A stretch of 38,440 nucleotides of DNA, from the IMG/VR virus record IMGVR_UViG_2663762939_000006. The stretch is one strand, 5' to 3'. Both the position numbers and the translations under genes were made by a program. The DNA comes from a virus. Its lineage: Duplodnaviria > Heunggongvirae > Uroviricota > Caudoviricetes. This document shows positions 1 to 25,409 of this stretch, one piece after another. How positions within the stretch are numbered: position 1 is the first letter of the stretch; every line of letters starts with the position of its first letter. Under the pieces are notes generated by a model. It was not told the origin of the DNA. It did no database searches and saw only the letters and a program-made list of their open reading frames with translations.

Positions 1-1149
1 TTAGATGCTTTTTAACGACGCGAACAGTGCCGCCCATTCGCTATCGGCGCGATAAAAGACCGGCGGCTTGCCGATGGGCGCATTAACGGTCACTTCCCCG
101 CCCCGGAATGCTTCACCCGTCCAGGCATGGACCCAGTTATCCTCCGGCAGATAGAGCGTCCAGTCGCTACGGCCTTCTTCATGCACCGGAGCGACCAGAA
201 TGTCGCGGCCTAACAGGTACTGATATTTCAGGGTGTAGGTCTGCGCGTCGTCTTCGTAATGCAGGAACAGCGGGCGCATGACCGGCAGACCGGACTTCGC
301 ATTCAGCGCGACGGCCTCTTTCAGATAAGGTTTCAGGGTGGTGAAGACGGTGGTCATACGGGCGAAATGGGCGATGGTTTCCGCGTCGCCGTCAAACTGC
401 CAGTTGTCGCCAGGACGGTTACCTTCGTGGGTGCGCATCATCGGCGTGAAGGCGCTGAAATCGCACCAGCGCAGCAGCAGCTCTTTGCTGCGCTTCATCT
501 CAAACAGGGTGGTGTAACCGCCAATGTCGCTGTGATGCAGGCCATGTCCGGTCATTGCCAGCGACAGCGCCGCCGGGACAACCGACGCCAGGCCATCGTC
601 GAGACTCCAGTCGACGTTCTGGTCGCCCGCCCACATCATGGTGGAGTATTTCTGGCTACCGGTAGAACCGGCGCGCATAAAGAAGAGGATCTCGCCGAGC
701 TTGCCCGTTTCTTCAAGGGCTTCGTAGTTACATTTCGCCCACAGCGCAGGCCAGGCGTTATGCATAATTTCCGCGCTGACGCCGTTATGCAGGTACGTGT
801 CGGTGGGCAGATACTCGCCGAAGTCAGCCATCCAGCCGCCGCAGCCAAGTTCAATCATGTTCTTTTTGATCACTTCCTTGAACCAGGCGTAGGCTTCTGG
901 ATTGGTGAGGTCGACAACGCCGCCATAGAACTCGCCAAACTCCACCAGATAGTCGCCGCCAGAGGCATCTTTTGCCAGATAACCGCGCTTTGCCGCCTCT
1001 TCGCAGAGATCTTTATCGCTGGCTACATACGGGTTGATATAGGCCAGGAACTGCACGCCCTCTTTGTTCCACTGCTTAATACGTGAGTCCAGTTGCGGAT
1101 AGTTTTCGCTGTTCCACTTCCAGTTGATGCGCCGCGCGATAAATGCACT
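1..1149 (-). pseudogene. yihQ: 3' portion of a GH31 glycoside hydrolase gene (YihQ/sulfoquinovosidase-like); upstream half missing, in-frame stop at 1150-1152
   Basis: ORF 1..1056 translation carries GH31-like motifs (GGWMADFGEYLP); frame stays open upstream to 1149 (..NWKWNSENYPQLD..) then stops; only ~380 codons present where ~680 are expected from memory. Confidence 0.55.
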
Positions 1150-1202
1150 CTATCTTGTGCGATAAATGGCATCCACGCGGCGTTTCATTATTTGAAAAAG
1201 AA

Positions 1203-1775
1203 TTACATTTCAGGTTGCGTTATGACAGTCCCAACAGGGTGGTAGCGGTAGATCGTTGACAGTCCAATATCATAGATAATTGCCAGCCGCTTTCTGTCAT
1301 ACCCTTTCTGGAGCAATCTTGCGATCTGCTCATGCTGCTCCTTCGTCAGTTTCGGGCGACGTCCTCCAACTCTCCCTTGTGCTCGCGCAGCAGCCAGTCC
1401 TGCCAGCGTGCGCTCAACTATCAGTTCACGCTCCATTTCTGCCAGTGCACCCATCATATGAAAAAAGAACCTTCCCATCGGAGTGCTGGTATCGATTGAA
1501 TCCGTCAGACTGCGAAAATTGACACCTTTTGCGCGTAGCTCTTCTGTGAGAGCAATGAGGTGTTTCATTCTTCTACCCAACCGATCCAGCTTCCAGACCA
1601 CCAATGTATCCCCTCTTTTAAGGCACTTTAAAGCGCGTTTCAGGCCTGGTCGTTCCGACTTGGTTCCGCTCATTTTGTCCTCAAAAATCTGTTCACATCC
1701 TGCGCACATTAATGCATTGCGTTGCAAATCTGTGTTTTGGTCATTTGTTGACACACGTATGTAGCCAATCAGCAT
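1203..1775 (-). CDS. gin: serine recombinase, DNA invertase of the Gin/Pin/Cin/Hin family
   Basis: Translation from ATG at 1773-1775 begins MLIGYIRVSTNDQNTDLQRNAL.. (catalytic Ser motif), closely matching Gin/Pin as recalled; SD AAGGGAG upstream; stop TAA at 1203-1205. Confidence 0.9.
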   Translation of the reverse strand: MLIGYIRVSTNDQNTDLQRNALMCAGCEQIFEDKMSGTKSERPGLKRALKCLKRGDTLVVWKLDRLGRRMKHLIALTEELRAKGVNFRSLTDSIDTSTPMGRFFFHMMGALAEMERELIVERTLAGLAAARAQGRVGGRRPKLTKEQHEQIARLLQKGYDRKRLAIIYDIGLSTIYRYHPVGTVITQPEM

Positions 1776-1829
1776 TAAAAATACTCCCTTTTGAGTGGTT
1801 AAAGTACTGAGATAATGTGGGGAGGATTT

Positions 1830-1855
1830 GAGAGATAAACGTTGGTTTGGGGGAA
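1830..1855 (+). other. candidate 26-bp invertase crossover site R3 (gix/hix-like), inverted relative to R1 and R2
   Basis: GAGAGATAAACG TT GGTTTGGGGGAA; shares half-site GGTTTGGGGGAA and TT core with the other two copies; lies ~55 bp upstream of gin as gixR does in Mu. Confidence 0.6.
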
Positions 1856-2308
1856 GGCTCTGCATTGCCTGTTGGTGTACCGGTTCCATGGCCCACCGCC
1901 ACACCGCCAGCAGGCTGGTTACAGTGCAACGGAGCTACGTTCACCAAAGAACAATATCCTGTTCTGGCCAGAGTCTACCCGACCCTCCGTCTTCCCGATT
2001 TGCGCGGTGAGTTTATCCGTGGATGGGACGGTGGTCGCAAGGTTGATACCGGGCGTACGGTACTTTCATTTCAGGAAGGGACTATCGTATCCGGTTTTGA
2101 TGATAATAATACCGGAGATATCAGTTCGCTCGGCTCTACACAATACGGATTTGGTGACGCTTTAACCTCTAATCAACTGGGGGTCATAAATGGCAAAAAG
2201 TGGATATTTGATGCATCCTCTAAAGGTGCACAAAGATATGACTGGTGGGCTTATGTATCAGCTCGCCCCCGCAATATCGCATTTAACTATATCGTGAGGG
2301 CGGCGTGA
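1847..2308 (+). CDS. alternative tail-fibre C-terminal cassette Sv3 (no ATG of its own; opens with the shared GEGSALPVGVPVPWPTATPP repeat)
   Basis: ORF starts at TTG inside the repeat; N-terminal ~65 aa identical or near-identical to an internal segment of the tail-fibre gene; ends ..RPRNIAFNYIVRAA like the other cassettes. Confidence 0.7.
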   Translation: MGEGSALPVGVPVPWPTATPPAGWLQCNGATFTKEQYPVLARVYPTLRLPDLRGEFIRGWDGGRKVDTGRTVLSFQEGTIVSGFDDNNTGDISSLGSTQYGFGDALTSNQLGVINGKKWIFDASSKGAQRYDWWAYVSARPRNIAFNYIVRAA

Positions 2309-2314
2309 TACCGT

Positions 2315-2929
2315 TCAACTGGCAAGTGCCAGTGGTGCTTCCGGCCAGCTGATTTCAGGTGCCGTGCTGATATCCAGTGCGTTCAGCTCGTCGATATAAT
2401 CCAGCACGGCGTTCAGTTTTGCCGTTTCTTCTGGTGTCAGACTGCGACCAGCACGCAGTTTGAGGTTGATAAGATCGACGGACGCCATCGCCTGTTTCAC
2501 CCGTTGCTGGCGTTGCTGTCTGGCAACCTCCAGTTCTGCGGTTCGCTGCCGTTCAGTATCGGTTACCCACGCCTCACCGTTCCAGGTATCCCATGGCGTG
2601 GCTGGCTGTTTTGTGGTGGTGTCCGCCGGGTAATCACCCGGTTGGGTAATCAGAACGGGGTTACCGTTCTCCGTGCTGTATACCGTCTCGCCGCGGTGAT
2701 CAGGCACATGCTCCCACCCGTTCAGCGTGGCAGTCCGGCAAACCACGTAACCCGAAATTGCCTCCGGCGGTGCATCGGCGCACGAATGTGCCGGAGTACC
2801 CACCCCAAGGGCGAGATACTCCACAGAGGATGAGGTGTATTCCCGGGTTTCCTCGTCATAGTGATATACAGTGATATCGCCCGCTACAGTGGCGATACCG
2901 TTTTCATCCAGAACTGCAGTGTTACTCAT
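2315..2929 (-). CDS. tail fibre assembly chaperone (Tfa / Mu U-like)
   Basis: ATG at 2927-2929 overlaps the Sv2 stop (TAATG); C-terminal region ..LTPEETAKLNAVLDYIDELNALDISTAPEISWPEAP is typical of the conserved Tfa chaperone domain. Confidence 0.75.
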   Translation of the reverse strand: MSNTAVLDENGIATVAGDITVYHYDEETREYTSSSVEYLALGVGTPAHSCADAPPEAISGYVVCRTATLNGWEHVPDHRGETVYSTENGNPVLITQPGDYPADTTTKQPATPWDTWNGEAWVTDTERQRTAELEVARQQRQQRVKQAMASVDLINLKLRAGRSLTPEETAKLNAVLDYIDELNALDISTAPEISWPEAPLALAS

Positions 2930-3441
2930 TAAACTGCCCTCACAATGTAATTAAGTGCAATGCTACGGGGTCTGACAGTGATACCCTTCGCATACCCGCT
3001 TCTGATAGAGGTCAGAATAGTAGCCTGCATACCATTGTCTGACATTGCTATGACAGGATCGCTGAATGTTGTCCCGTCCGGCATTTTAAAGCTGCCCTCA
3101 CGAAGGTCTGTAATGGAATCTTCATTGTTGAATCCCATGCCGACTATCCCCGAGGTTCCCGTAGTGTCCTGGTTATAATAATCCAGCATTGCTGTTCTTA
3201 ACAGCGTTGCCCCTTGTGCGGACAGCAACTTACGTCCTGTATCAACTTTGCGCCCGTCGTCCCATCCACGGATAAACTCACCGCGTAAATCGGGAAGACG
3301 GAGGGTCGGGTAGGCTCTGGCCAGAACAGGATATTGTTCTTTTGTAAAGGCGCGCCCGTCGCACTTTAACCAGCCTTCTGGCGGTGTGGCGGTGGGCCAT
3401 GGAACCGGTACACCAACAGGCAATGCAGAGCCTTCCCCCAA
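2929..3441 (-). CDS. alternative tail-fibre C-terminal cassette Sv2 (promoterless, same orientation as the expressed fibre)
   Basis: Begins at TTG within the shared repeat 9 bp after the tail-fibre stop; ends ..NYIVRAV; followed by tfa. Confidence 0.7.
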   Translation of the reverse strand: MGEGSALPVGVPVPWPTATPPEGWLKCDGRAFTKEQYPVLARAYPTLRLPDLRGEFIRGWDDGRKVDTGRKLLSAQGATLLRTAMLDYYNQDTTGTSGIVGMGFNNEDSITDLREGSFKMPDGTTFSDPVIAMSDNGMQATILTSIRSGYAKGITVRPRSIALNYIVRAV

Positions 3442-3458
3442 ACCAACGTTTAGGCCGC
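3433..3458 (-). other. candidate 26-bp invertase crossover site R2 (direct orientation relative to R1)
   Basis: On the minus strand GCGGCCTAAACG TT GGTTTGGGGGAA; ~75 bp around it is identical to R3 in inverted orientation. Confidence 0.55.
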
Positions 3459-4577
3459 CCTGACAATGTAGTTAAAGGCAATATTTCGTGGACGGGTTTC
3501 CCTCCCGCCAGTATTACCGATACTCCCTCGCGAATGAAGTGTTGGTGATGGGGTCAGACTCCCTCCTGTATTTGTGGCATCAAGTCCTCGTCCTTGTGTG
3601 TATGTTTTTTTGAAAATCGCAGCCAGTTCCCATTCATCTTTTGTGTCGTAACCATCATTGGCAACAACAATATGACGGTGTTTCTCAATCATTCCGCTCT
3701 GGCTGCTTAGCAGGGCACGCCCGGTGTCAATCTTTCGTCCGTCATCCCATCCACGGATAAACTCACCGCGCAAATCGGGAAGACGGAGGGTCGGGTAGAC
3801 TCTGGCCAGAACAGGATATTGTTCTTTGGTGAACGTAGCTCCGTTGCACTGTAACCAGCCTGCTGGCGGTGTGGCAGTGGGCCACGGAACAGGTACACCA
3901 ACGGGCAGCGCCGAGCCTTCCCCCAAACCAAGGTAATTGAGGACATCTTTTATACTGCCCTTAGCGATAATAGCGCGACCAATAGCTGTAAGGGTTGCCA
4001 GCGCTGCGCGGTCTGCTCCGGTAAAATAAGGCAACCGATCTGCTGCAGTGGCAAGTCCTGCCAGAGCAGTGAGCGTGGCATCTGCCGGTTGTTTTCCGTT
4101 TGCCAGATCGTATGCAGCCTTGACCGCTTTCGGTGTGGCGGCCAGTATTTCAGACGTGCTGTTGATGGCACTGCTCAGTTGTACGGTGCCTTTTGCCGTC
4201 AGCGAGGCAGCAGGCACTCCCGTTATCTGACTCCACGGGTGAGTGTGGCTGACGGGCGCCTTGCCGGCTGCAAGGTCGTATGCAGCCTTGACGGCTTTTG
4301 GTGTGGCGGCCAGCGTTTCAGAGGTGCTGTTGGTGGCACTGCTCAGTTGGGTGAACCCCTTAGCTGTCAGTGTCGCGTCCGGGTGGTTACGGGAACGTAC
4401 GTGTTCAGCCAGTGACTGTGCGGCTTCCTCCGTTTTTTTCTTCAGCCATTTCGTCCTGTTTGCCAGTTGCCGGGGGGCTCGATTTGATATCCCGTCTGCA
4501 CCACCCAGAACCGGATCTGATGTCTCCAGTTGATAGATATTTTCTTCCCACTTTTCTGTTTCATTCAGGTTTCCCAT
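3450..4577 (-). CDS. tail fibre protein (Mu S / P2 H-like) currently fused to cassette Sv1
   Basis: N-terminus ..NETEKWEENIYQLETSDPVLGG..RQLANRTKWL typical of Mu/P2/lambda side-fibre N-termini; ATG at 4575-4577 with SD GGGAG; stop TAA 3450-3452. Confidence 0.85.
   Translation of the reverse strand: MGNLNETEKWEENIYQLETSDPVLGGADGISNRAPRQLANRTKWLKKKTEEAAQSLAEHVRSRNHPDATLTAKGFTQLSSATNSTSETLAATPKAVKAAYDLAAGKAPVSHTHPWSQITGVPAASLTAKGTVQLSSAINSTSEILAATPKAVKAAYDLANGKQPADATLTALAGLATAADRLPYFTGADRAALATLTAIGRAIIAKGSIKDVLNYLGLGEGSALPVGVPVPWPTATPPAGWLQCNGATFTKEQYPVLARVYPTLRLPDLRGEFIRGWDDGRKIDTGRALLSSQSGMIEKHRHIVVANDGYDTKDEWELAAIFKKTYTQGRGLDATNTGGSLTPSPTLHSRGSIGNTGGRETRPRNIAFNYIVRAA
3918..3943 (-). other. 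candidate 26-bp invertase crossover site R1 inside the tail-fibre gene (constant/variable boundary)
   Basis: On the minus strand TCCTCAATTACC TT GGTTTGGGGGAA; about 17 of 26 positions match the Hin hixL site TTATCAAAAACCTTGGTTTTCAAGAA as recalled. Confidence 0.6.
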
Positions 4578-4579
4578 AA

Positions 4580-5158
4580 TCAACTGCTCCCGTGGTTATA
4601 ACTGCCATCATGGATGGCTGTATTGTTATAGCGAATGGCCACAGACTGATACTCCAGGCTGGCCAGATGGCAGCGGGCCGGTGCAAATGCAGCCAGCGTC
4701 TGACGCAGCATCGCGGCCTGATCGTTAGTAATGGGCTGTTTCAGAATAACGCGATAAACTGCCCAGGCGGCTGCATCTCCATGAACAAACAGTCCGTTAT
4801 AGCTGCGATTGCCGTCGTAACTGAGACGACCTGTGCCTTCAATCAGATCCACTTCACCAAAGCCAAAACGGCGGATAACTTCCCGGATTGACCACGGCGT
4901 CCCTTTATACCGGTGCAGTTCGATGGCTGCTTTTATAAGCATGCGGCGAACATCGTCCGATTCCGCCAGCTCCCAGCCATCGCCAGACAGTGAGAACTGC
5001 TCGCCCAGCCATGGCAGCGCGGAACTGTCGACGATATCGACGAGAAAGACCATCAGTACGCTCAGGTCGATGTTATCCAGCCGTCCTGCCAGTCTTCCCA
5101 GCGTCCTGAGACTGATATCACCCTCAAGCGGTGGCGGGAGTTGTAATGGCTCAGTCAT
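4580..5158 (-). CDS. tail protein (Mu gp48 / P2 gpI-like)
   Basis: Position between baseplate J and tail fibre; start ATG overlaps upstream stop (ATGACTGA); size and composition fit the family. Confidence 0.65.
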   Translation of the reverse strand: MTEPLQLPPPLEGDISLRTLGRLAGRLDNIDLSVLMVFLVDIVDSSALPWLGEQFSLSGDGWELAESDDVRRMLIKAAIELHRYKGTPWSIREVIRRFGFGEVDLIEGTGRLSYDGNRSYNGLFVHGDAAAWAVYRVILKQPITNDQAAMLRQTLAAFAPARCHLASLEYQSVAIRYNNTAIHDGSYNHGSS

Positions 5159-6254
5159 CAGACACTCCAGTCATGTTAAGAGTGATTGCCGTACAGTTTG
5201 CCCATTCGTTTTCTGCCACCACCCGCAGTGCCGGTGTCACCAGTTCAACCTGGTACACCCCGGAAACGGACAATGCACTGATAATCTGGCTGGGGACAAT
5301 ATCGCGCCCCAGCGTGGCGGCACGTGATGCCACCCAGTTCTGTATGGCGCTGTTAGCGGCATCTTTTACAGACCTGGCATCCTGATCACGATAGATCGTA
5401 ATCCTGGCTTCAATGGTGTAATCCACCTTCACTGGTGTTTTAGCCCGCACTGTATCAGTGAGTGGCCTGACTTTCTCATCAGAGCAGAAACTCTCTACCA
5501 GCGTGAGAACACCGCCGTCCGGCAGACCGGTACTGAGCAGCGGATACAGATCTACGGTCCCGGGAACCGGGGAAAGCACAGCAACATCGACAATGTTGGG
5601 ATGGGCCTGCATGGCATGAAAGCGGTATGCGCCACGGCTTCCGGCATTGGTGAATGACTCCGGGGCCAGCCTGATACGCTCCCGGAGCCTGTCATCGTCT
5701 TCCTGTTCTGAACCGCCGGAACTGGCCGTCAGATTGCTCACCAGCAGGTCGACGTTATCAATCTCATCGAGTAACTGACTGACCTGCGCAGGTTGCCAGC
5801 CGTTACCAGCGGTACCGGGTTCGGTACAGGTGGACGTGACATTGACCAGCAGCAATCCGGCCTTCAGTACCACATCTGTATCGGTGGCAAAAATAACGCT
5901 GTCGGAAGCGCTGACGCGGGTGCCTGCCGGGATCAGCACATCAATGGCCAGTGCCTCATCTACGGAGAACTGGAGCGTGGTGGTGGCAGGCTGCGCGGCA
6001 AGACGGTATACACCAACCAGTTCACCGAGGTAATCAATCATCGGCTCACGGGCAAAGGCGACCAGATTCTGCTTTGCTGCCTCCTGTACCGCAACCCTGA
6101 CCAGCATTTCGCGATAGGCCCACAGATCAATCAGCAGACGTTCTGCCTGTGCCGGGTACAGCGTTTTGCCGGTATCCGCTTCATACTTCGCAATCATTTC
6201 TGCCGTGATTTTGTCGGCATCGCGTTCAATAAAATCGGGTTCTGTCAGCGCCAT
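5151..6254 (-). CDS. baseplate J-like protein (Mu gp47)
   Basis: 367 aa, translationally coupled; position and size conserved in Mu/P2 baseplate modules. Confidence 0.7.
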   Translation of the reverse strand: MALTEPDFIERDADKITAEMIAKYEADTGKTLYPAQAERLLIDLWAYREMLVRVAVQEAAKQNLVAFAREPMIDYLGELVGVYRLAAQPATTTLQFSVDEALAIDVLIPAGTRVSASDSVIFATDTDVVLKAGLLLVNVTSTCTEPGTAGNGWQPAQVSQLLDEIDNVDLLVSNLTASSGGSEQEDDDRLRERIRLAPESFTNAGSRGAYRFHAMQAHPNIVDVAVLSPVPGTVDLYPLLSTGLPDGGVLTLVESFCSDEKVRPLTDTVRAKTPVKVDYTIEARITIYRDQDARSVKDAANSAIQNWVASRAATLGRDIVPSQIISALSVSGVYQVELVTPALRVVAENEWANCTAITLNMTGVSDD

Positions 6255-6592
6255 AGCAGCTCCTGAGTCCGGGTCTGTCCGTCTGAGCCTTTCCAGCTCA
6301 CCCGGAGCGTAAGATGTTCGCCGTCGACGGCGGGTTTAACTGACATAAGCTGGCAGCGGGGCTCCCAGCGCCGGATGGCATCGACGGATTCGCGCACCAC
6401 ATGCGGAATGGCCCGGTCTACAGGCCAGTCGATATAAAGATGCAGATTGCTGCCGAACTCCGGGCGATGCGGGTCGCTGCCGCGGGGAGTCCGCAGGATA
6501 ATTTGAATCGCCTGCCGGATATCATCCAGCCCCCGGACAATTTCGCCGGGAGCCTGCAGGGCTGGTTGCCAGAATACTGAGGTTGTTTTCAT
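6245..6592 (-). CDS. baseplate wedge protein, GPW/gp25 family (Mu gp46)
   Basis: 115 aa; ..PRGSDPHRPEFGSNLHLYIDWP.. typical of gp25/GPW fold proteins. Confidence 0.7.
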   Translation of the reverse strand: MKTTSVFWQPALQAPGEIVRGLDDIRQAIQIILRTPRGSDPHRPEFGSNLHLYIDWPVDRAIPHVVRESVDAIRRWEPRCQLMSVKPAVDGEHLTLRVSWKGSDGQTRTQELLWR

Positions 6593-6646
6593 GGGGGCAG
6601 TATTGCCCCCGTGCGGGAACGCTGATATTAAAGGCGTTTAAAAAGC

Positions 6647-7243
6647 TCAGTGGGAGTGGTGGCTGGAGTTTTCGCCATCAGACAACATACTGCCCGTGGC
6701 ATGGGCATTCCCTTTAATCTCGATATTGCCATGGATGGTCGCGGTAACACCTTCACCACCAGAACCCGCCATGCCTCCTTCGTAAATCAGTTTACCCCTG
6801 ACACGCAGATCTCCGGTAAGTTCGGTTTCCGGTGCGTCAATCGTGGCTTTCTGTGTTTTCAATACCACATCAGCACCACACTCAATGACAATATGCTCAA
6901 TGCCGCCCCGGATGATCAGAGTGTGCGTCTTCCGGTTGTAGCTGTACTCTGCACCATCAGCAAACCGGGTTCCCCGGATATTTTTGTCACTGAACGGTGG
7001 TTTATCGACGTCTGAATACACCGCGCCCAGAATAACACCATCCTCGCCGTTGGCATCGAGCAGCACCTCAACCTGCTCCCCCACGTCAGGGAGCCAGTAA
7101 TCTTTGTTATCCTGGGTATTGCGCTGCAGCACGTTAAGCCAGTTTGTGCGCAGGTTATCGCATTCAGGCAGACGAACGCGGGCCTGAACCCTGTCGGCAT
7201 CAACGGCACTGACCGTACCGACCTGACGAGTGACACCAGTCAT
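6647..7243 (-). CDS. baseplate assembly protein V / central spike (Mu gp45)
   Basis: 198 aa; gpV-like N-terminal OB region and Gly-rich C-terminus; position. Confidence 0.7.
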   Translation of the reverse strand: MTGVTRQVGTVSAVDADRVQARVRLPECDNLRTNWLNVLQRNTQDNKDYWLPDVGEQVEVLLDANGEDGVILGAVYSDVDKPPFSDKNIRGTRFADGAEYSYNRKTHTLIIRGGIEHIVIECGADVVLKTQKATIDAPETELTGDLRVRGKLIYEGGMAGSGGEGVTATIHGNIEIKGNAHATGSMLSDGENSSHHSH

Positions 7244-8394
7244 TTTTTCTTCTCCTTAATCACCGTCGATGTACTGCCATCCGGGTGATAAACCGTGAGT
7301 TTCTGAGTTTTTTGTTTTTTCCCTCTTGTGACTGGCCCCCGTGCCACTTCCAGCTCTGTGGTGTAGCCGCTGTTACGGTCAAACGCATGGCGGGCAGTGG
7401 TTATGAGCCATGGCCCGGATAACTGCCCAAAACCCACCAGTTCAATTTTGTTGCCTGCTGTCAGTTGAGGTGTTCCCGTCAGCGTCAGGGAGCCGTTCTG
7501 CTGGTATTCGTTATGTCTGGCCAGTGCTGAATCCGCTTTAATCCGGGCACTGTCCGGGTCGCTGACGCGGCTGTTAACTTTAAGTGAGTCAGCGCTGGTA
7601 ACCTTACCACCTTTGAGCTTTTTGTCGCTTTCACGGGTACCACCATCAGCTTCGTAGACGATCAGTTTTTTACTGCTGCTTTTCTGGTGTTTTACCTTTG
7701 CAGATTTATAGACCCGGTTGATGGTGTCACGCAGGGAAAAGCGGGCCACATCCTGCGGTTTTAACTGCCTGACCGGCTCCTGACTGCGCAGTGTGGCCAG
7801 ATGAGAAAAAATCAGCTGGTCACTGACCACTTTCACTGCATAACCATACTCGCTGGCCAGCCGGCGCAGAAAACCCACGTCGGTTTCAGCATACTGGGTC
7901 ACCCGGTCGATTCTGATGGACTCAATGCTGCCCACCAGTTTCAGCCGGTGCTTTCTGGCAATCCGCCCCGCAACAGCTGCCAGCGTGGTGTTCTCAAAAC
8001 CACGGCTGGATTTAGTCCGCAGAGCACTGTTAACCGAGGTGGCCACCCCACGGATAGCGACAACGGACGCGGGCGAACTCACTTCGATCTCGTCTATTGA
8101 GAATGTACCGCAGGACAGCAGTTTCTCGCCCTGATAACCCATTTTCAGCGTCAGCGTGTCACCCTTGCCCGGATACCACTTATCCAGCCAGCGGCCATCG
8201 GTGTCGTCCAGCTCCACCTCAATGGTATCGGACTCATTTTTGATGTTATCGCTCCAGGTCACACGGGTGACATAAGGCGCGATATCAGAGGTGATGTTTT
8301 TCTGCAGATACCACAGAGTGAATACCGGCGTCAGCACATCGCTGACGCCGGTTAACGCTGATGTGGCTTGCGCAGTACTGTTTATCTCAGCCAT
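7240..8394 (-). CDS. tail/baseplate hub protein (Mu gp44 / P2 gpD-like)
   Basis: 384 aa; position between DNA-circulation protein and spike; lysine-rich C-terminus. Confidence 0.65.
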   Translation of the reverse strand: MAEINSTAQATSALTGVSDVLTPVFTLWYLQKNITSDIAPYVTRVTWSDNIKNESDTIEVELDDTDGRWLDKWYPGKGDTLTLKMGYQGEKLLSCGTFSIDEIEVSSPASVVAIRGVATSVNSALRTKSSRGFENTTLAAVAGRIARKHRLKLVGSIESIRIDRVTQYAETDVGFLRRLASEYGYAVKVVSDQLIFSHLATLRSQEPVRQLKPQDVARFSLRDTINRVYKSAKVKHQKSSSKKLIVYEADGGTRESDKKLKGGKVTSADSLKVNSRVSDPDSARIKADSALARHNEYQQNGSLTLTGTPQLTAGNKIELVGFGQLSGPWLITTARHAFDRNSGYTTELEVARGPVTRGKKQKTQKLTVYHPDGSTSTVIKEKKK

Positions 8395-8594
8395 GGGGCA
8401 ATATCCTCTTCTGTACGGGCATCTTCAGCCTCAATCACCGGGATCAGTAACAACAACCCGGAGGGCAGCACCGGCGTGATGGCCACGTGCGGATTGGCTG
8501 CAATAATCCGGGGATAGCCCAGCGGGTCACCGTAGTACTGCCATGCCAGCGAATCCCAGCGCTCTCCGTCACGGGTAATATGTTCAAGAAACAT
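8382..8594 (-). CDS. tail protein X-like (LysM-like small tail protein)
   Basis: ..WDSLAWQYYGDPLGYPRIIAANPH..LPSGLLLLIP resembles the P2 gpX family; ATG at 8592-8594 overlaps the upstream stop (TGATG). Confidence 0.6.
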   Translation of the reverse strand: MFLEHITRDGERWDSLAWQYYGDPLGYPRIIAANPHVAITPVLPSGLLLLIPVIEAEDARTEEDIAPWLR

Positions 8595-9478
8595 CACACA
8601 CTCCTCGTCAGTATTCTGGCGGCCATTGCACTTAATCCCGGAGACATGCGGTTGAATGCTGTGCCGGCGGCGTTAAGCTGCCCGGAAACGGTATCCAGAG
8701 CACCTGCAATATTTCTTTTGTCCACACCACTCAGCGCAGACTGTGCCTGCTGTACATACGTGGCTGCTTCGCTGGCTGTTCTGGCCAGACTGATGGCATC
8801 GGGCATGGATTCAGAGAGTGCGTTAAACGCCGGAACACTTTTCCCCAGAGCCCCGGAGATATTACCCAGTCCGCTCATCAGCCCCGGCACACGGGTCAGT
8901 GCGACAACGGGGTTATCCTTCATTTTCTGTGTCACCCGAACGGCGCTGATAGTGGTCTGGAGTACAGACTGCGCCTGTTTCGCATAGTTGACGCCGTTGC
9001 GGATGAACTGCGCCACCCCTGAAGGCGAAGGAATGGCACCGGAGACCGCCCCGACACCCGGGAGCTTCGTGCGTATTGCCGGTGGTTGCAGAGGATTTTT
9101 CGGGTCACCGGTGTATTCCCGGAGAGACACGGTGGCACTGACAGCCAGCACGTTGCCGGTATTGTCAGTCTGCTCGCTGGTTGCAGTCACATCGGTAATC
9201 ACGAACCAGCCGCGATAGTCACCGTTGCCGAAGACCAGCGCCAGTGCCTGATGGGCTTTCATGGCTGTTCGCAGTCTCGCCAGCTCCACATCGGGTACAC
9301 AATAATGCTGATGGAAAACCAGAGTTATCTGGATTTCGTCCAGCCTGTCGCCGACGAACTGCAGGCCAGGCTTACCCCCGATGCGGGCATGCTCCGCATA
9401 ATCGACGCCGAACGTGGCCTCGAAGCCGTCCCAGTAGGTAATCAGCTCAAACTCAATATCACCCAGTACGGCAAACAT
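8594..9478 (-). CDS. DNA circulation protein (Mu N-like)
   Basis: 294 aa directly downstream of tape measure, overlapping stop/start; position as in Mu. Confidence 0.6.
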   Translation of the reverse strand: MFAVLGDIEFELITYWDGFEATFGVDYAEHARIGGKPGLQFVGDRLDEIQITLVFHQHYCVPDVELARLRTAMKAHQALALVFGNGDYRGWFVITDVTATSEQTDNTGNVLAVSATVSLREYTGDPKNPLQPPAIRTKLPGVGAVSGAIPSPSGVAQFIRNGVNYAKQAQSVLQTTISAVRVTQKMKDNPVVALTRVPGLMSGLGNISGALGKSVPAFNALSESMPDAISLARTASEAATYVQQAQSALSGVDKRNIAGALDTVSGQLNAAGTAFNRMSPGLSAMAARILTRSV

Positions 9479-12400
9479 CAGCGGTACTCCTTACGTTGTT
9501 TCTGAGCCAGCAGACGCTCCAGCATTTTTTCCAGCTCATGCAGACTCATATTCAGGGCACCAGTCAGTCCTGCAGGCGCTGTGGTTTCCCTGCCATTGAG
9601 GAAAAACTGAGGATTAAAGCTGACCTGGATACCACCAGACGTTCCACCGCCGGTTGCAGCTGCACCACGGCCTGAATATCCGGCAGCCATGATTTCAGGC
9701 GAGGGGATACGGGGAACATCCGGTGTCATCTCATTTGCCAGACGTTGCCCTGGTAAAATCGATGCCCGGGTGGAGAGCGGGATAGCGGGCATGGAAGACA
9801 AACTATTGATTACGGCTCCGATCGCATTTTTAGCAGACGACATAAACCCATTGATATCGGGCAACGGCATACTGAAGCGAACACCTGAAGTGTTATCCCG
9901 TATTTCTGGCCCCTGAATGCTCACGGGCATTCTGGGGAGCAGTTCACTGGCCATTCGCTGCCCGGCCAGAGCTGCAAGCGGAGTGGTCCGCTGCAGGCCA
10001 ATGGCGGCCCCCTGCGCGATATTGTCACCAAAGCCCATAAACACGCGGCTCGGCGAATGAATGCCCAGCTTTTCGCTGAACCAGCCACTGATGCTGTCGC
10101 CCATTCCGGTTACACTGGATTTGAGCGACTCCCATTTGTTTTTGATACCGTTAATCAGACCGTCGACAAGATGGCCACCGAAGTCGGTGAACTTTGCCGG
10201 CAGATCAACACCAAGATATTTCAGCGCAGCTGCAAAGGCTTTATAGAGCAGACCTGCCGGCGACCAGTTAATCAGCAGCTTACCAGTTCCCGCGATACCG
10301 CCGTTAAAGGCTTCCTGAATGTCAGCCCAGCACTGTTTAAACCAGCTACTGATGCTGTCACCCATTCCGGTTACACTGGATTTGAGCGACCCCCATTTGT
10401 TTTTGATACCGTTAATCAGACCGTCGATAAGATGGCCACCGAAGTCGGTGAACTTTGCCGGCAGAGCAACGCCGAAATATTTCAGCGCAGCCGCAAAGGC
10501 TTTATAGAGCAGGCCTGCCGGCGACCAGTTAATCAGCAACTTACCAATTCCCACAATGCCGCCGTTAAAGGCTTCCTGAATGTCAGCCCAGCGCTGTTTA
10601 AACCAGCTACTGATGCTGTCACCCATTCCGGTTACACTGGATTTGAGCGACCCCCATTTGCTTTTGATACCGTTAATCAGACCGTCGATAAGATGGCCAC
10701 CGAAGTCGGTGAACTTTGCCGGCAGAGCAACGCCGAAATATTTCAGCGCAGCCGCAAAGGCTTTATAGAGCAGGCCTGCCGGCGACCAGTTAATCAGCAA
10801 CTTACCAATTCCCACAATGCCGCCGTTAAAGGCTTCCTGAATGTCAGCCCAGCGCTGTTTAAACCAACCACTGACAGCCCCCCAGTTGCGGTAGATAAGG
10901 TAAGCTGCTGTCGCGACAGCGGTGATAACGAGACCGATGGGATTCATCATCAGCGCTCGCCCAATCCAGAGAACGGCACGTGCAGCGCTCATAAAACCGC
11001 GAACGAGGCTGCCCGCCAGAACTTTGCTGAGTTTCAGTCCTCCGCTGGTCAGTCGGCTGAATCCAGTGACAAGCCAGCGTAATTTGCCACCTTCTCCGAG
11101 TGCGGTAGTCAGTCGATGCCAGTTGGTCCGGAGTAAAACAGTAGTTTTCCAGACGTTCACAAAGGGGGAAATAAGGAGATTCAGCCCCAGTTTGAGACCA
11201 ACAGTCGCTATCTTAATCGCAAGGAGCGCACTGATGAGCTTAAAAGCCCCACTGACAAATTGCGGGTGAGTCGCTACCCAGTGTTTTGTCCCCTGAATGA
11301 GTGGGAGCAGTTCCTGAGTCAGAGAAATAAAAGATGGAGCTAATTGATCGCCCAGCGTAATTGCCAGATCGCGACTGCTGACCATAAGTGTTTTAGTGGC
11401 TTCAAGGGGAGATTTCAGCCGCTGATCATAAGCACTGGCAAGCAAATCGTTATCCGCAGCCCTGAGAGCACCGGCACGGATCTCTCGATATCTGTCCATG
11501 TTGGCCAGCATCGGGCGGATAAATGCCATGACCTGCATATCCGCGAACATATCGCCCAGACCAAAGTTTTTCGCCAGAGCCTGAAGTGCCTCATCTCTTG
11601 CCGTATCATTCTTTATTTTCATGGCTGATTTGAAGCCGGCCAGCGCTTCGGGGCTTTTGGCATTGAGGTAACGTTCTATAACACTCAACATCCCTTCAAT
11701 CGGAGAGATCCCCGCAGCTTTATAACTCGCAATAGATCCCTGCAAATCAATACCCAGATCAGCAAACTGTTTCTGAGTATCGCGGGCAAAAATTTTGGTA
11801 AGAAAGTTTTTAAAATTATTGGCTGCTTCGTCGGTGGAACCTGCACCGATTTTTGCTATCTGGAGACTGGCCCCGATTTCAGCAACAGCCTCTTTTCCAC
11901 TGGCAAGACCCGCCATCATTGGGGCCAGGGACTGCATCCACTTGACCTGATCCGGGATTTCAAATGACCCCTGGTCACCGGCATAAGCCATAATATTCTG
12001 AACGGCACCAAAATCTCTGGCCGCACCTTTCAGGGAGTTTTGCCAGACTGCGGCCACTTTTGCCCAGTCCTGAGCAGACGTGCGTGTTGCCGTTGCCGCG
12101 CGGGCAATATCCGGCATCAGAAAACCGATATCTGACACATTATCAATATTGTCGCTGATGAGTGAACCCACCGCCTCCTGCAGCTCATCCTGATACTGAT
12201 TGTATTTAAGCGCCCAGCCTTTTATCTGTCCGGCAAGTGCATCCCGCGTTTTATTGTCATATTTTGCGGTGATCGACATATCAATCATTTTGTCCTGAAA
12301 AGACATGGACTGCTGAACGGCAGGGGAAACCGTATGATAAACAGTCTGTGCCATGCCATACGCTTCAATCCCCTGACCATACAGCGCCATGCGGTTAGCT

Positions 12401-12690
12401 TTCAGCGCATCACTGGTAGCGGATGCCGCTGACAGACGGCGCTGCTGGCGCTCAATTTGCTCCATGGTGCGGCTTACCCGCAGCAGCTCGCTGTTGAGAT
12501 GCTGCATCCGGGAAGAACCCAGTTGACCATAACGTTCTGTTGCACGGGTTAAAGCGTTCTGACGTTCCTGCAGGCGGCGTGAGGTATCGCTCAGGGAATC
12601 AAGCGCACGGCGGGTACCGCTCATTGCAGAACGGAATGTGCTGCCAATCATCCCGCCGATAACAACGCCGACTGAAAACTGTCCCGACAT
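9478..12690 (-). CDS. tail tape measure protein
   Basis: 1070 aa, Ala/Gly-rich with predicted coiled-coil and TM-like segments; three internal ~87-aa tandem repeats; follows the chaperone pair. Confidence 0.85.
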   Translation of the reverse strand: MSGQFSVGVVIGGMIGSTFRSAMSGTRRALDSLSDTSRRLQERQNALTRATERYGQLGSSRMQHLNSELLRVSRTMEQIERQQRRLSAASATSDALKANRMALYGQGIEAYGMAQTVYHTVSPAVQQSMSFQDKMIDMSITAKYDNKTRDALAGQIKGWALKYNQYQDELQEAVGSLISDNIDNVSDIGFLMPDIARAATATRTSAQDWAKVAAVWQNSLKGAARDFGAVQNIMAYAGDQGSFEIPDQVKWMQSLAPMMAGLASGKEAVAEIGASLQIAKIGAGSTDEAANNFKNFLTKIFARDTQKQFADLGIDLQGSIASYKAAGISPIEGMLSVIERYLNAKSPEALAGFKSAMKIKNDTARDEALQALAKNFGLGDMFADMQVMAFIRPMLANMDRYREIRAGALRAADNDLLASAYDQRLKSPLEATKTLMVSSRDLAITLGDQLAPSFISLTQELLPLIQGTKHWVATHPQFVSGAFKLISALLAIKIATVGLKLGLNLLISPFVNVWKTTVLLRTNWHRLTTALGEGGKLRWLVTGFSRLTSGGLKLSKVLAGSLVRGFMSAARAVLWIGRALMMNPIGLVITAVATAAYLIYRNWGAVSGWFKQRWADIQEAFNGGIVGIGKLLINWSPAGLLYKAFAAALKYFGVALPAKFTDFGGHLIDGLINGIKSKWGSLKSSVTGMGDSISSWFKQRWADIQEAFNGGIVGIGKLLINWSPAGLLYKAFAAALKYFGVALPAKFTDFGGHLIDGLINGIKNKWGSLKSSVTGMGDSISSWFKQCWADIQEAFNGGIAGTGKLLINWSPAGLLYKAFAAALKYLGVDLPAKFTDFGGHLVDGLINGIKNKWESLKSSVTGMGDSISGWFSEKLGIHSPSRVFMGFGDNIAQGAAIGLQRTTPLAALAGQRMASELLPRMPVSIQGPEIRDNTSGVRFSMPLPDINGFMSSAKNAIGAVINSLSSMPAIPLSTRASILPGQRLANEMTPDVPRIPSPEIMAAGYSGRGAAATGGGTSGGIQVSFNPQFFLNGRETTAPAGLTGALNMSLHELEKMLERLLAQKQRKEYR
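10060..10865. repeat. three tandem ~261-bp in-frame repeats inside the tape measure gene
   Basis: Unit starts at ~10081, 10342 and 10603 (CCAGC[C/T]ACTGATGCTGTC.CCCATTCCGG..); copies 2 and 3 nearly identical, copy 1 slightly diverged; 261-bp period preserves frame. Confidence 0.85.
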
Positions 12691-12765
12691 AGTGGTTAAC
12701 CTCCGGGGAAGGTGAAAAGACGTGAGGGGATAACGCAGAACAGCCGCTACTGGCGGCTGTCTGTA

Positions 12766-12862
12766 CTATGATTTGTCGCCGTACTCGCTTTTGATTTGCT
12801 CTTCAGCCTGCTCCAGCCACATCTCCAGATCGTCAGTATCGAGGGCATCAATCTCCCCCGGC
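12766..12862 (-). other. frameshift extension of the tail assembly chaperone (GT/E'-like long product), in the +1 (= -2) frame
   Basis: Second ORF overlaps the 3' end of the chaperone ORF and extends 82 nt past its stop; G5 run GCC GGG GGA GAT TGA at 12848-12862 is a candidate slip site. Confidence 0.5.
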
Positions 12863-13183
12863 TGAAACCGGAACCATCTCGCCAGCAGCCCCTGCGCCTG
12901 CGTCAGCGCCCTGGTTGCTCTCACCCATCCCCGTGATGAGCTGAAATCGTTTCTGTAACTGCAGGTAATCAGCCAGATCCATATTGTCGAGATCTTCCGG
13001 GAGAAGACCAGTACTGCGGGCAATCAGCGGTTCGTCCCAGTCTGCCGGGTTTTTGCTGATTTTGCGCACCTGCTTCAGGTCTTTTACCGTCAGGCGTTTC
13101 AGTTCAACCAGCTCAATTCTGGTGCCTGCAGCAGTGGTGAAGGGATAAGACAATTTAAAAGTATCGGATGGGGTCTGTGACAT
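12848..13183 (-). CDS. tail assembly chaperone (G/E-like, short product)
   Basis: ATG at 13181-13183 with SD AGGAG; acidic C-terminal part; sits between tube and tape measure. Confidence 0.7.
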   Translation of the reverse strand: MSQTPSDTFKLSYPFTTAAGTRIELVELKRLTVKDLKQVRKISKNPADWDEPLIARSTGLLPEDLDNMDLADYLQLQKRFQLITGMGESNQGADAGAGAAGEMVPVSAGGD

Positions 13184-13280
13184 GATTGTGCTCCTGTGTA
13201 AGTTCAGGGCAGTATGTCGGGAGAAGCGCGTGACGGATATTAAAGGAGATTAAGAAGAAGGGGCCGGAGCCCCTGTGATG

Positions 13281-13562
13281 TCAGCAAGTGCGAAACCCCT
13301 TGCAGTTACGCAGGAAAGCGATGAGAAGCGTCTTTCCCTCAGATTTGCCGATGCCGGAGAACCAGTGGTCGGGAGGCTCCCATGCTTCAATCAAATCCGC
13401 CAGTTTGCGGGCCTTTGAACGTGTGCAGTCAATCGGGTCATTGGTTTTACGGGTATTAAAAAGGGTTTCCACCCCCGGAATATCAAGGAGGGTAAACCAC
13501 GTACCATTTGACATGCCCAGTGCCGCACATCGTCCTCCTTTATCCGTCAGTTCAACACTCAC
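13281..13562 (-). CDS. hypothetical small protein downstream of tail tube
   Basis: 93-aa ORF tightly packed after the tube gene, but an equally long antisense ORF exists; coding status uncertain. Confidence 0.3.
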   Translation of the reverse strand: MSVELTDKGGRCAALGMSNGTWFTLLDIPGVETLFNTRKTNDPIDCTRSKARKLADLIEAWEPPDHWFSGIGKSEGKTLLIAFLRNCKGFRTC

Positions 13563-13564
13563 CG

Positions 13565-14086
13565 TCAGCCCCCGATATTGATACGGTAGTCAGTCAGTTG
13601 ATCAACACCGCCGACCCGGAAGATGTTGGCCAGATAGTCCAGTTGCAGCAGCTCTTCACCATCCAGTACCTGTCTGATATACGTGCAGGTGAAGCTACTG
13701 GAGAACTCGGCGTTCTCGTGCTGTTTGAACGTCCCCAGCGGGTTCTTCTTGAACATAATCGTCAGGAAGGTGACCAGCGGGATTTCGTCAATCAGCCCCT
13801 GCGAGCTGTAGCGCTGGACGCTGGAACGACACTGCAGTGCCAGCGACCTGTACGGGTTCGCGGCAGACAGCATCGCATCGCGGTAAAAGCTGTTCCATTT
13901 GATTTCGCCTTCCAGCTTGTCAAAACCAGCCGGGAGTTCCACCTTACCCACCATCCCCAGCGCCTTGTGTTCCTGCATAATCATGGAGACATCGGGGAGT
14001 TTGACTTCCTCAGCCCGTCCCAGCAGGTTAGTACCATCCAGATAGATGTTGGCATTCGTGATGCGGTTTATCTCAATCTTTGACAT
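13565..14086 (-). CDS. tail tube protein (Mu M-like)
   Basis: 173 aa immediately downstream of sheath, overlapping stop/start; conserved sheath-tube order. Confidence 0.75.
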   Translation of the reverse strand: MSKIEINRITNANIYLDGTNLLGRAEEVKLPDVSMIMQEHKALGMVGKVELPAGFDKLEGEIKWNSFYRDAMLSAANPYRSLALQCRSSVQRYSSQGLIDEIPLVTFLTIMFKKNPLGTFKQHENAEFSSSFTCTYIRQVLDGEELLQLDYLANIFRVGGVDQLTDYRINIGG

Positions 14087-15513
14087 CAGTTGCCCCCTTT
14101 CAGGGTTAACAGGTATTCCGAGGTGATCTCAGTCTCAAACGTCAGTCGCTCCAGCGGCGGTGGTGGCGTATATTTGTAGCTCAGCAACAGGTGCCCGGCG
14201 GCCAGCTCCGTCTCCGGATTGCGGGCCGGATCAAACCAGCAACGGAAGCCCAGTACCGCACCATCACCAGTCATTTTGCGACCGTAGGCGTTGACCGACT
14301 CCGTCAGTGCATCAATCAGCGCCTGAGTAATCGGCATGTCGATGTACTGCTGGCTGAAATAACGAATGGACTCGTTGATCACATCACCGGTGCGGCGAAC
14401 GTTCTCAAAGTTACGCATATGGGTGACCGTTGGCCATGCTGCCGTCCGGTTACCCCACAGACGAAGGCCGCTGCCGTAACTGCTGAATACCGTGGTGATC
14501 CCCTGTTCGTTAAGCAGGTTCACCTCACTCTGCGGGTCATCAATCATCGCGGACAGCTGGCGCTCCACGCCGGTGATCCCCAGAATCTCCTGATTGGAGG
14601 ATGACCACCAGTAGCCCTTGTCCAGATCGACTCTGGCACGCAGACCTGCTGCACGCTGGCTGAGCGGCTCCAGACGCTCTGTGTTTGTCACCGGGTCATA
14701 TACCTTCACATGCGGATAGCACAGACGGACGCGGTCGGAGCTGGTATTGAAGTTGATGGTGCCTTCCGGGCCACGACCTGCCAGAGCCTGTGCAAAGGTG
14801 GTACCGACAGGCGCATCAATGTAGGTTATCGCGCCCAGCTTCTCTGCCATGGCGATAAGCTCAACTGCGACACTCTTCTGGGTGCAGAACACCGGCGCAA
14901 TCAGAATTTTGGCGAAATAGCCGTACAGGTTGAAGCTGTCGTTAAGCAGCTTCATGCCGGTTCGGTTTCCGGCGCTGTTCACCCCGCCGATGATGTCCGC
15001 CGCAGTCACCTTCGACGGGTCCGCGTACTCATAGCTCACCTTCACGCTGCCACCGGCCTCAATAGCCTTGCCCAGGTTCGTGAGCACACCCGCCTGCGCA
15101 TCAACACGGTAGTCCGTGTTCGCCGTGTGGGTGGTGCTGCCTTCACTGTTTTTCACCACCACATTAGCGACAACCGGATGCGCCAGTCTGGCCTGCCCTG
15201 TCGATTTGTCAAAGGTAACCACCTCATCCTCGATCGCCGTTTTATGTTTCGCCGGGTCGAGGACGTTAATGACCAGAACGGTGCCTGCACCATGGTCATA
15301 AATCGCATCCAGCGCCTGCGGAATGGTAAAGCCGGTGAACTGGCTGCCAAATGCCGCTGCGTCTTTCTCAGACAGGCACTGTACCAGCGTATTGACATCC
15401 CCCATCGGGGCGGTACCAATCAGGCCAATAACGGCAGATTTCACCGTTTTAACCGGGCGGGCTCCGTTTTCCACCTCAATGGTTTCGGGACCATGCAGAT
15501 AGTTAGCTGCCAT
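14086..15513 (-). CDS. contractile tail sheath protein (Mu L-like)
   Basis: 475 aa; size, position and sequence character typical of myovirus sheath. Confidence 0.8.
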   Translation of the reverse strand: MAANYLHGPETIEVENGARPVKTVKSAVIGLIGTAPMGDVNTLVQCLSEKDAAAFGSQFTGFTIPQALDAIYDHGAGTVLVINVLDPAKHKTAIEDEVVTFDKSTGQARLAHPVVANVVVKNSEGSTTHTANTDYRVDAQAGVLTNLGKAIEAGGSVKVSYEYADPSKVTAADIIGGVNSAGNRTGMKLLNDSFNLYGYFAKILIAPVFCTQKSVAVELIAMAEKLGAITYIDAPVGTTFAQALAGRGPEGTINFNTSSDRVRLCYPHVKVYDPVTNTERLEPLSQRAAGLRARVDLDKGYWWSSSNQEILGITGVERQLSAMIDDPQSEVNLLNEQGITTVFSSYGSGLRLWGNRTAAWPTVTHMRNFENVRRTGDVINESIRYFSQQYIDMPITQALIDALTESVNAYGRKMTGDGAVLGFRCWFDPARNPETELAAGHLLLSYKYTPPPPLERLTFETEITSEYLLTLKGGN

Positions 15514-15754
15514 GGGCGTCCTCCGTTTTCACTTCGCTGTCACTGCTGCTTCTGCGCTTTGGTGACTGCACAGCCGGTGTGACGGCGGGTTTAGTATCTT
15601 CTGGTTCCGGCGTCAGATGCTTCAGCGCCACCAGTACCTTCACGTAGTCATGCTCCTCCGGCAGGGAAACCGTCTTCCCCGGCCAGAGCAGGATTTCGGT
15701 TCCGTCCGACAGCGTGACGCCGCTGGCCGGGCCGGAATAGCGGTATTCTTTCAT
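15503..15754 (-). CDS. hypothetical virion/assembly protein (Mu gp38-like position)
   Basis: Small ORF coupled to neighbours (ATG at 15752-15754 overlapping upstream stop). Confidence 0.5.
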   Translation of the reverse strand: MKEYRYSGPASGVTLSDGTEILLWPGKTVSLPEEHDYVKVLVALKHLTPEPEDTKPAVTPAVQSPKRRSSSDSEVKTEDAHGS

Positions 15755-16218
15755 CACTCGCTTTCCTCATAGTTCACTTCGGTTAACAGCGGGCCGGACG
15801 GTAAATCGCTGTCTTCGATAAAGATGCTTTCAGTCGCGAAGTCGAGGGCGTATTGCCACAGCCCCCTGACTTCACCGATAAACACCTCGCGGGTCAGCCA
15901 GATACGGCAGCGGCACCCGGGCGGGGTGTGGCCACCGAGAATGCGGCGGACAGCATCCAGGACATTAATCGCCCCTTTTTTACCGTTGAGCTGGCGGAAG
16001 ACCACCGTGACGCAGAGCTGGATAGTCTGAGACTGGATCACCGCACCGGTATCATCCGGCCTGTCAAAGCGCGAACCGGCATAGCTCAGCAGCAACGCGC
16101 CAACCGGATGGTTCAGGCGATATTCAGCCGGTTTCTCCGGGAAGTACTCCACCTGCAGTTGCGGCAGCTTCTCGCGTAACCGGGCCAGCACCGCATCAAG
16201 GACGGGCAGAACGTTCAT
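15754..16218 (-). CDS. head-tail joining/tail completion-like protein (Mu gp37-like position)
   Basis: 154 aa, translationally coupled in the head-tail connector region. Confidence 0.5.
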   Translation of the reverse strand: MNVLPVLDAVLARLREKLPQLQVEYFPEKPAEYRLNHPVGALLLSYAGSRFDRPDDTGAVIQSQTIQLCVTVVFRQLNGKKGAINVLDAVRRILGGHTPPGCRCRIWLTREVFIGEVRGLWQYALDFATESIFIEDSDLPSGPLLTEVNYEESE

Positions 16219-16664: not shown

Positions 16665-16665
16665 G

Positions 16666-17004: not shown

Positions 17005-17013
17005 AACGCCTCC

Positions 17014-17967: not shown

Positions 17968-17981
17968 GCTCTCTCCTTAAA

Positions 17982-19097: not shown

Positions 19098-19311
19098 TTT
19101 GCTGTCCCGCGTTATGTTGTCGGAGACAGTTTGTGAGAAATGCAGGCCCGGCGATTTTAATCTGCTTTAGAAAACATCAGGGGAGAAGGACAGGGAAAGC
19201 AATGCGGTGAACCGGAGGCGGTTATAAAACAGAGGCTGTAAAGCCTTTATAAAGGTAATACAGCCCCTCATTCGCTGGCAATGATAAATCACCCGCCTGA
19301 AGAGAGAAAAC

Positions 19312-19770: not shown

Positions 19771-19772
19771 TG

Positions 19773-24133: not shown

Positions 24134-24135
24134 AA

Positions 24136-25381: not shown

Positions 25382-25409
25382 AATGACCCGCCACGGCAGC
25401 GACCGTAAC

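Follow-up and report, generated by a model that had tools for sequence, protein, structure and literature searches.

A BcepMu/B3-type prophage end in the yihQ gene of Escherichia coli

The window analyzed here, a stretch of 38,440 nucleotides (nt) from the virus record IMGVR_UViG_2663762939_000006 of IMG/VR (Caudoviricetes), opens with part of a bacterial gene that lies next to a gene for a phage-type DNA invertase. This raises the question of where the host DNA ends, what kind of element begins there and how that element was integrated. A sequence-only reading had described the locus as a Mu-style prophage end that was inserted in a gene by transposition. The prophage end and the transposition-mediated insertion in a gene were both retained, but the transposase was found to be of the BcepMu/B3 type and not MuA. 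Bases 1125–1202 are very likely the right terminus (attR) of a BcepMu/B3-type prophage integrated in E. coli yihQ by DDE transposition. The features at the junction are as follows.

1..1124, minus strand: 3′ fragment of yihQ (sulfoquinovosidase, GH31), the last 374 codons and the stop of a 678-codon gene
1125..38440: prophage body, continuing past the window; left end predicted about 196 nt beyond 38440, total about 37.5 kb
1125..1167, plus strand: conserved right terminus (attR core), 5′-TG and two direct boxes 23 bp apart, the presumed sites of the transposase TnpA
1136..1144, plus strand: outer box GCGATAAAT, nt 12–20 from the terminus
1159..1167, plus strand: inner box GCGATAAAT, nt 35–43 from the terminus
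1168..1202: non-conserved spacer from the inner box to the gin stop, holding CGTTTCATTATTTGAAAAAG at 1181–1200 (nt 57–76)
1203..1775, minus strand: gin-type serine DNA invertase, 190 amino acids (aa), Pfam Resolvase and HTH_7, read toward the prophage end

The junction and the right terminus

Comparison of bases 1..1125 with 5426 complete E. coli genomes showed yihQ matches in 3890 of them, at 95–100% identity, and the yihQ gene of strain 7/2 was 100% identical over this length. All of the 26 listed alignments end at base 1125, because the terminal T of the phage by chance equals the next base of yihQ. Across the insertion point the intact gene reads ...CCACTTCCAGTT|CCACATTACGCG and the window reads ...CCACTTCCAGT|TGATGCGCCGCGCGATAAATG. 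The breakpoint between host and prophage is thus at 1124/1125. The earlier reading had followed a host-like frame to about 1149. That frame is indeed open as far as a stop codon at 1150–1152, but identity to yihQ ends 24 nt further left, and codons 1126–1149 (SAFIARRI) are phage DNA; the translated intact gene has ...GKRVMWNWKW in their place. The frame stays open because the eight phage-derived codons contain no stop. Accordingly, the distance of 54 nt given between the host frame and the invertase stop was replaced by 78 nt from the gin stop to the prophage end.

The alignment identified the GH31 (yihQ-like) gene that had been proposed to be split by the prophage end as E. coli yihQ itself. 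Pfam detected PF01055 (GH31 TIM-barrel) and PF21365 (C-terminal) in the fragment. The match to the barrel profile (328 positions) begins at position 54 in the fragment and at position 23 in intact YihQ, in which the barrel starts at residue 267, so that the insertion point is inside the barrel. As the fragment holds the last 374 of 678 codons and starts within the TIM-barrel, it is a truncated yihQ and not a naturally short homologue; the latter had been named as an outcome that would speak against a prophage end. The insertion cuts yihQ after about codon 304 of 678, inside the barrel, and the gene is predicted to be inactivated. Judging from the gene order, polar effects are likely on yihP and yihO, located downstream of yihQ and on its strand. 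Since yihQ encodes the first enzyme of sulfoquinovose catabolism, its probable insertional inactivation in the source strain is flagged here.

A 296-nt query taken from the prophage side (1125–1420) was found in 597 of the 5426 complete genomes, and all listed alignments begin at query base 1. The host genes adjoining this end differ: sufB, torZ, malE, srlE, ssuB, yeiB, MaoC-like genes and genes of other prophages (lysC among them) were found, and in GN05064 the prophage splits sfaA. Inward from TGATGCGCC, five insertions compared base by base are identical; the nucleotide immediately before it differs among them (t, t, t, a, a). This places the terminus at the T of the TG (1125), which sets the exact prophage boundary for annotation. 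The same prophage end is joined to many host sites across genomes, and insertion among lysogens is essentially random.

This diversity also bears on the idea that an integrase placed the element at an att site in yihQ by site-specific recombination, as in lambda or P2. A P2-like tail module and the serine recombinase gene adjoining the end could be taken in its favor. Nevertheless, the many host genes joined to this end share no flanking sequence, the recombinase is a small Gin-type invertase that serves the invertible fibre segment, and none of the complete relatives examined has an annotated integrase of the tyrosine or large serine type. Site-specific integration was rejected because the insertion sites are too diverse, and we give it practically no chance. 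The placement of the gin-type invertase as the last gene of the prophage (1203–1775, minus strand), directly beside the end, was confirmed.

For comparison of the termini, five ends were aligned without gaps. Left ends (L), of which two types (A and B) occur, were taken from complete E. coli copies of the prophage, and the BcepMu ends (L and R) from BcepMu itself (NC_005882.1).

Right end in the window: TGATGCGCCGCGCGATAAATGCACTCTATCTTGTGCGATAAATGG
E. coli left end, type A: TGATCAGACATGAGATAAATGAAGGGGGATCCGTGAGATAAATAA
E. coli left end, type B: TGATTAGACTTGAGATAAATGACAGGGAATAAGTGAGATATTTAT
BcepMu left end: TGAAGAGAGGTGAGATATTTCCAAGGGAGAACGCGCGATATTTCC
BcepMu right end: TGAAGCGCGGCGCGATATTTCAGCACGTCGACGCGCGATAAATTC

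Seventeen positions are invariant in the five ends (T1 G2 A3 G7 G12 G14 A15 T16 A17 T20 G33 G35 G37 A38 T39 A40 T43), and no invariant column was found beyond nt 43 from the terminus. Direct copies of a box with the consensus G[CA]GATA[AT][AT]T are present at nt 12–20 and 35–43 in all five, including both BcepMu termini. In the window, the form GCGATAAAT (GMGATAAAT) occurs only twice, at 1136 and 1159, where 0.27 occurrences are expected; two of 100 shuffled sequences reached two. Their conservation, position and spacing suggest that the two boxes are TnpA binding sites. The ends of Tn552 also carry two 23-bp repeats. An inverted copy of 1144–1200 had been expected at the left end, and an imperfect inverted copy does exist there, but it corresponds to 1125–1167. 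A scan of 1000–2000 for promoters and terminators gave nothing, nor did an Rfam search of 900–2000 at E ≤ 1.

The likeness of this region to the ends of Mu is literal but limited. The motif GCGATAAATGG, previously noted as resembling Mu attR, is real and is the conserved inner box. A 9-mer, CGATAAATG, lies 36–44 nt from the end in the window and 35–43 nt from the end in Mu, where it is within the R2 site, and the first 7 nt are TGATGCG in the window and TGAAGCG in Mu attR. The 22-nt end-site consensus of Mu (YGTTTCAYTNNAARYRCGAAAR) was not matched anywhere in the window at up to three mismatches, and its 9-nt head, YGTTTCAYT, occurs three times in the window against 1.4 expected, which is not an enrichment. 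The interpretation of CGTTTCATTATTTGAAAAAG as a Mu transposase end site was not upheld, as it has six mismatches to the consensus (counted by hand) and lies beyond the last invariant column (nt 43).

The statement that there is no room for com/mom holds, with only the 78 nt between gin stop and terminus available and no homologue in the window: tblastn of Mu Com and Mom against the window gave noise only (E ≥ 0.6). This absence looks normal for the BcepMu family and not anomalous, because the BcepMu annotation lists neither gene.

Transposase lineage and mode of integration

The genes that place the element in a lineage lie toward its left end, apart from a methylase gene closer to the middle.

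28158..28922, plus strand: Dam-like D12-class N6-adenine methyltransferase (PF02086, E = 5e-29)
30953..32722, plus strand: DDE transposase TnpA, 589 aa, Tn552/B3/BcepMu lineage (rve only; phrog_310, transposase)
32733..33899, plus strand: AAA+ transposition ATPase, TnpB/MuB analogue, ExeA-like (AAA_22; phrog_296, 'DNA transposition protein')
37130..37528, plus strand: Mor-family late-gene activator (PF08765, E = 1e-43), near the left end like BcepMu gp01

In a tblastn search of 50,697 phage records, TnpA matched 69, and the best 40 of these 69 were listed; the listed matches are BcepMu/B3-type phages and no Mu record is among them. TnpA showed 98.8% identity to phage PhiKM, 68.3% to BcepMu gp09 and 56.8% to B3 TnpA, with 98–100% of the length aligned for BcepMu and B3. 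Only the rve core was detected in TnpA by Pfam, with no Mu-specific domain. Relatives annotate a 1167-nt ExeA family protein gene directly after the transposase, the equivalent of BcepMu gp08. The transposase of BcepMu belongs to the Tn552/IS1604 family and is unrelated to MuA (PMC2771037), and TG...CA ends together with a Tn552-related transposase are typical of BcepMu-group elements (PMC2628397, PMC2771037).

Late genes fill 1.2–27.7 kb on the minus strand. Early genes lie on the plus strand between about 29.7 and 37.5 kb, as the early block is annotated in relatives, and run through mor toward the left end. From the right end, gin and the invertible fibre region are followed by P2-like baseplate, tail and sheath genes, a Mu-like head module and lysis genes (minus strand, to about 27.7 kb), then by the Dam-like methylase and a repressor-like helix-turn-helix gene, and on the plus strand by small regulators, the rve transposase, the ExeA-like AAA+ gene, gam, gemA/gp16 and mor toward the far end. 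The element is a BcepMu/B3-type transposable prophage with a Tn552-related transposase, not one of the MuA type.

The 5-bp target duplication of Mu, which had been proposed for this insertion, was not found in relatives. Duplications were measured in six complete and independent insertions of the same prophage, 37.6–38.3 kb in length and all with TG...CA (...ATCA) termini, and each is flanked by direct repeats of exactly 6 bp.

sfaA: 38,341 bp, GGAAGT
lysC of another prophage: 37,595 bp, ATTATT
sufB/sufC: 38,199 bp, CCATCA
torZ/cmoB: 37,556 bp, CACCGA
malE: 38,340 bp, GAAGGT
ssuB: 38,284 bp, TCTCGA

Transposases of B3 and of the Tn552 family generate 6-bp duplications, compared to 5 bp for Mu (PMC8705779). 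As the element is of the BcepMu/B3 type, the duplication to look for at this locus is therefore one of 6 bp, and the six relatives predict it as follows.

1119..1124: predicted copy of the 6-bp target duplication, TCCAGT; second copy past the left end, outside the window

These results decide against a true Mu right end, made by MuA, with R-site-like motifs and a 5-bp duplication and with com/mom lost. Besides the TG terminus, the near-match of the first 7 nt and the 9-mer at nearly the same distance from the end, this alternative could point to the window Gin, which shares 76% identity with Mu Gin across 181 aa. TG...CA termini are common to Mu and the B3/BcepMu groups, and the terminus is thus not discriminating. 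The Mu reading is refuted by the transposase family, the unmatched site consensus, the 6-bp duplication in six of six relatives and the orientation of the early operon, which is inverted relative to the Mu order; the tail genes, moreover, are P2-like. We consider it very improbable.

It is proposed that TnpA would bind the two 9-bp boxes, 23 bp apart, at each end (here 1136–1144 and 1159–1167) and pair both ends, while the AAA+ partner may help to capture the target. The terminal ...CA 3′-OH of each strand would then be joined to target phosphates staggered by 6 bp, and gap repair would duplicate these 6 bp, here the predicted TCCAGT at 1119–1124. This chemistry is suggested for the present site by analogy with Mu, B3 and Tn552. 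The left junction is accordingly expected to read ...CATTTATCTCATGTCTGATCA, then TCCAGT, then the upstream part of yihQ (TCCACATTACGCG... / TCCACATTACGCGTTTGCC).

Some points weigh against integration of a BcepMu/B3-type prophage in yihQ as proposed here. Exact-pattern scans of genome and metagenome contig collections for the predicted left and the observed right junction gave no match, and none of the 5426 complete E. coli genomes carries the yihQ insertion. As the window includes neither the left end nor the rest of yihQ, the TCCAGT duplication and even the adjacency of the yihQ halves are predictions. Likewise, the two boxes are putative TnpA sites. The main residual doubt concerns the intactness of the left junction in the source genome, because this phage also occurs as solo ends and as remnants with deletions.

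The junction might accordingly be real and the source prophage nonetheless rearranged or truncated, by transposition-mediated inversion or deletion or by recombination with a second copy, in which case neither the other half of yihQ beside the left end nor a simple duplication would be expected. Genomes with up to three copies of the prophage end, deleted remnants such as that of IPCEC31 in srlE/srlA, solo ends on plasmids and the failure of the contig scans to recover the left junction are all in keeping with such an event. On the other hand, the visible 37.3 kb are collinear with a complete copy and 99.5% identical to it, except for the invertible fibre region: window 4166–38440 was compared with the 38.3-kb GN05064 prophage, and the last 1040 nt of the window are 100% identical to GN05064 and stop 196 nt before its prophage terminus. 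Rearrangement is therefore regarded as improbable, and insertion of a complete BcepMu/B3-type prophage remains strongly favored.

Fibre region, solo ends and accessory genes

In the invertible tail-fibre region next to gin, a repeat of about 220 nt occurs three times, twice in direct and once in inverted orientation.

1836..3934: invertible tail-fibre region, coding for alternative C-termini of the fibre and for a fibre-assembly protein
1836–2067 (plus), 3221–3452 (minus), 3717–3934 (minus): fibre repeats
1847–2308 (plus), 2315–2929 (minus), 2929–3441 (minus), 3450–4583 (minus): open reading frames (ORFs) of the region

The region encodes three alternative C-termini and only one assembly gene. 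Segment 2264–3494 is inverted compared to GN05064 with collinear flanks, and relatives show further arrangements. The switch is a multi-site Gin system, unlike the simple two-state G segment of Mu.

P1-like phage-plasmids of about 92–96 kb (26 PLSDB records) also carry the terminal 78 nt as a solo end, along with gin and the fibre cassette. These solo ends begin exactly at TG and adjoin a resident cin-like invertase gene that is truncated to its 5′ part; the junction has three different positions. Matches are listed below.

Window: 1125–4335
L013 (NZ_CP022228.3): 5971–9177
L011 (NZ_CP150992.1): 2471–2611
L014 (ON470615.2): 2259–3388

The junction in L013 follows MLIGYIRISTN and that in L011 follows MLIGYIRISTNDQNTAL. 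Homology with the window breaks off within the tail-fibre gene. A diverged copy was found in the Punavirus phage vB_EcoM-673R5, beside a decayed second invertase gene. It is possible, although we put this forward tentatively, that the right end with gin and the fibre cassette is a recurrently transferred module. A transposable phage could insert into cin, and recombination in the homologous fibre gene could then delete the other 34 kb or so, by which route the invertase and host-range cassette of the plasmid would be swapped. Alternatively, a single insertion may have been followed by end-adjacent deletions. TnpA supplied in trans might still act on a solo end.

Fragments of the left end were found as well. 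A 145-nt piece of a type A left end (nt 10–154, 89.7% identity, without the terminal 9 nt) is present in NZ_CP022731.1 (L012; 2501–2644), and about 30 similar fragments occur in large plasmids (about 145–295 kb, many from poultry isolates) and some chromosomes, adjoining IS3/IS1 debris. The 145-nt fragment appears to be the decayed relic of an earlier insertion. IPCEC31 (L009, NZ_AP026783.1, 201–13830) carries a prophage remnant of about 13.6 kb in srlE with internal deletions and the left end lost; a baseplate gene is fused to a head gene, the transposase is cut and joined to srlA, and the remnant yielded no duplication. This shows that these prophages decay in situ by deletion.

Between mor and the left end, the window has a plus-strand gene (37565–38275) for a protein of 210–236 aa with apparent hydrophobic, membrane-like stretches, for which no Pfam match was found and phrog_12870, a function-unknown family, was the sole hit. 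A small minus-strand ORF of 162 nt starts at 38440. Prophages with a left end of type A (GN05064, AR_0085, Esc31, KE21) have both genes and those with type B (HSP60, cS51a) have neither; the pair is accessory, in a moron-like position. The D12 methylase gene, the only DNA-modification gene seen in the window, lies between the lysis genes and the immunity region and is kept in all E. coli relatives examined; it may take the place of an anti-restriction modification such as Mom. Within the tape-measure gene (9478–12690), about 260 nt are duplicated in tandem at 10079–10874 (self-matches, offset by 261 nt compared to GN05064), and the length of this gene among relatives is 2691, 2952 or 3213 nt.

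Comparison with known systems

The element is already known: about 11% of the complete E. coli genomes carry near-identical copies, as does the isolated phage PhiKM, and the insertion in yihQ is the only new point. Essentially the same element is seen in phage PhiKM (PQ738613.1) and as a prophage in the 597 E. coli genomes (GN05064, AR_0085, HSP60, cS51a, Esc31 and KE21 among them), with 98.8% identity in the transposase, 98% in the structural region, 99.5% over the whole prophage (GN05064) and an identical right terminus. The differences are the yihQ site, which none of the complete genomes shares, the orientation of the fibre segment, and the left end, which is of type A here and of type B in some copies. 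Nothing new is therefore added for transposition biology, as the element, the transposase lineage, the TG...CA ends and the 6-bp duplication have all been described. The solo-end/cin junctions in P1-like phage-plasmids are the only by-product that is mildly new.

Burkholderia phage BcepMu (Bcepmuvirus, NC_005882.1) shares with the window element a Tn552-related rve transposase (68% identity) with an ExeA-like AAA+ partner, Mu-like head and P2-like contractile tail genes in collinear order, TG...CA ends with the same boxes at nt 12–20 and 35–43, and the lack of com/mom. In both, the early block mor/gemA/tnpB/tnpA is read toward the left end (BcepMu genes 1–13 versus 17–52; PMC2771037). In contrast to BcepMu, the window element has gin and a multi-site invertible fibre region where BcepMu has the acyltransferase gene gp53, carries a Dam-like methylase, none being annotated in BcepMu, and has E. 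coli as its host. Enterobacterial relatives of BcepMu ('SalMu' and others) were reportedly described by Summer et al. in 2004.

Pseudomonas phage B3 and Tn552 belong to the same transposase lineage (57% identity to B3 TnpA) and are similar in the TG...CA ends and the inverted early operon; their 6-bp duplication agrees with that of the six E. coli relatives and with the one predicted here (PMC8705779, PMC5977238). B3 differs in its flexible, siphovirus-type tail and other structural genes, and Tn552 is a small transposon and not a phage.

The Mu attR is similar in that DDE transposition proceeds from TG...CA ends with two close transposase sites (putative in the window element) and an AAA+ target-capture partner, in the position of gin beside the right end, and in the 9-mer CGATAAATG, which lies almost equally far from the end in both. 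The transposase of the window element, however, has none of the DNA-binding and C-terminal domains specific to Mu, the consensus of the Mu sites is not matched, relatives show a 6-bp duplication compared to 5 bp in Mu, com/mom is absent and the early genes are inverted.

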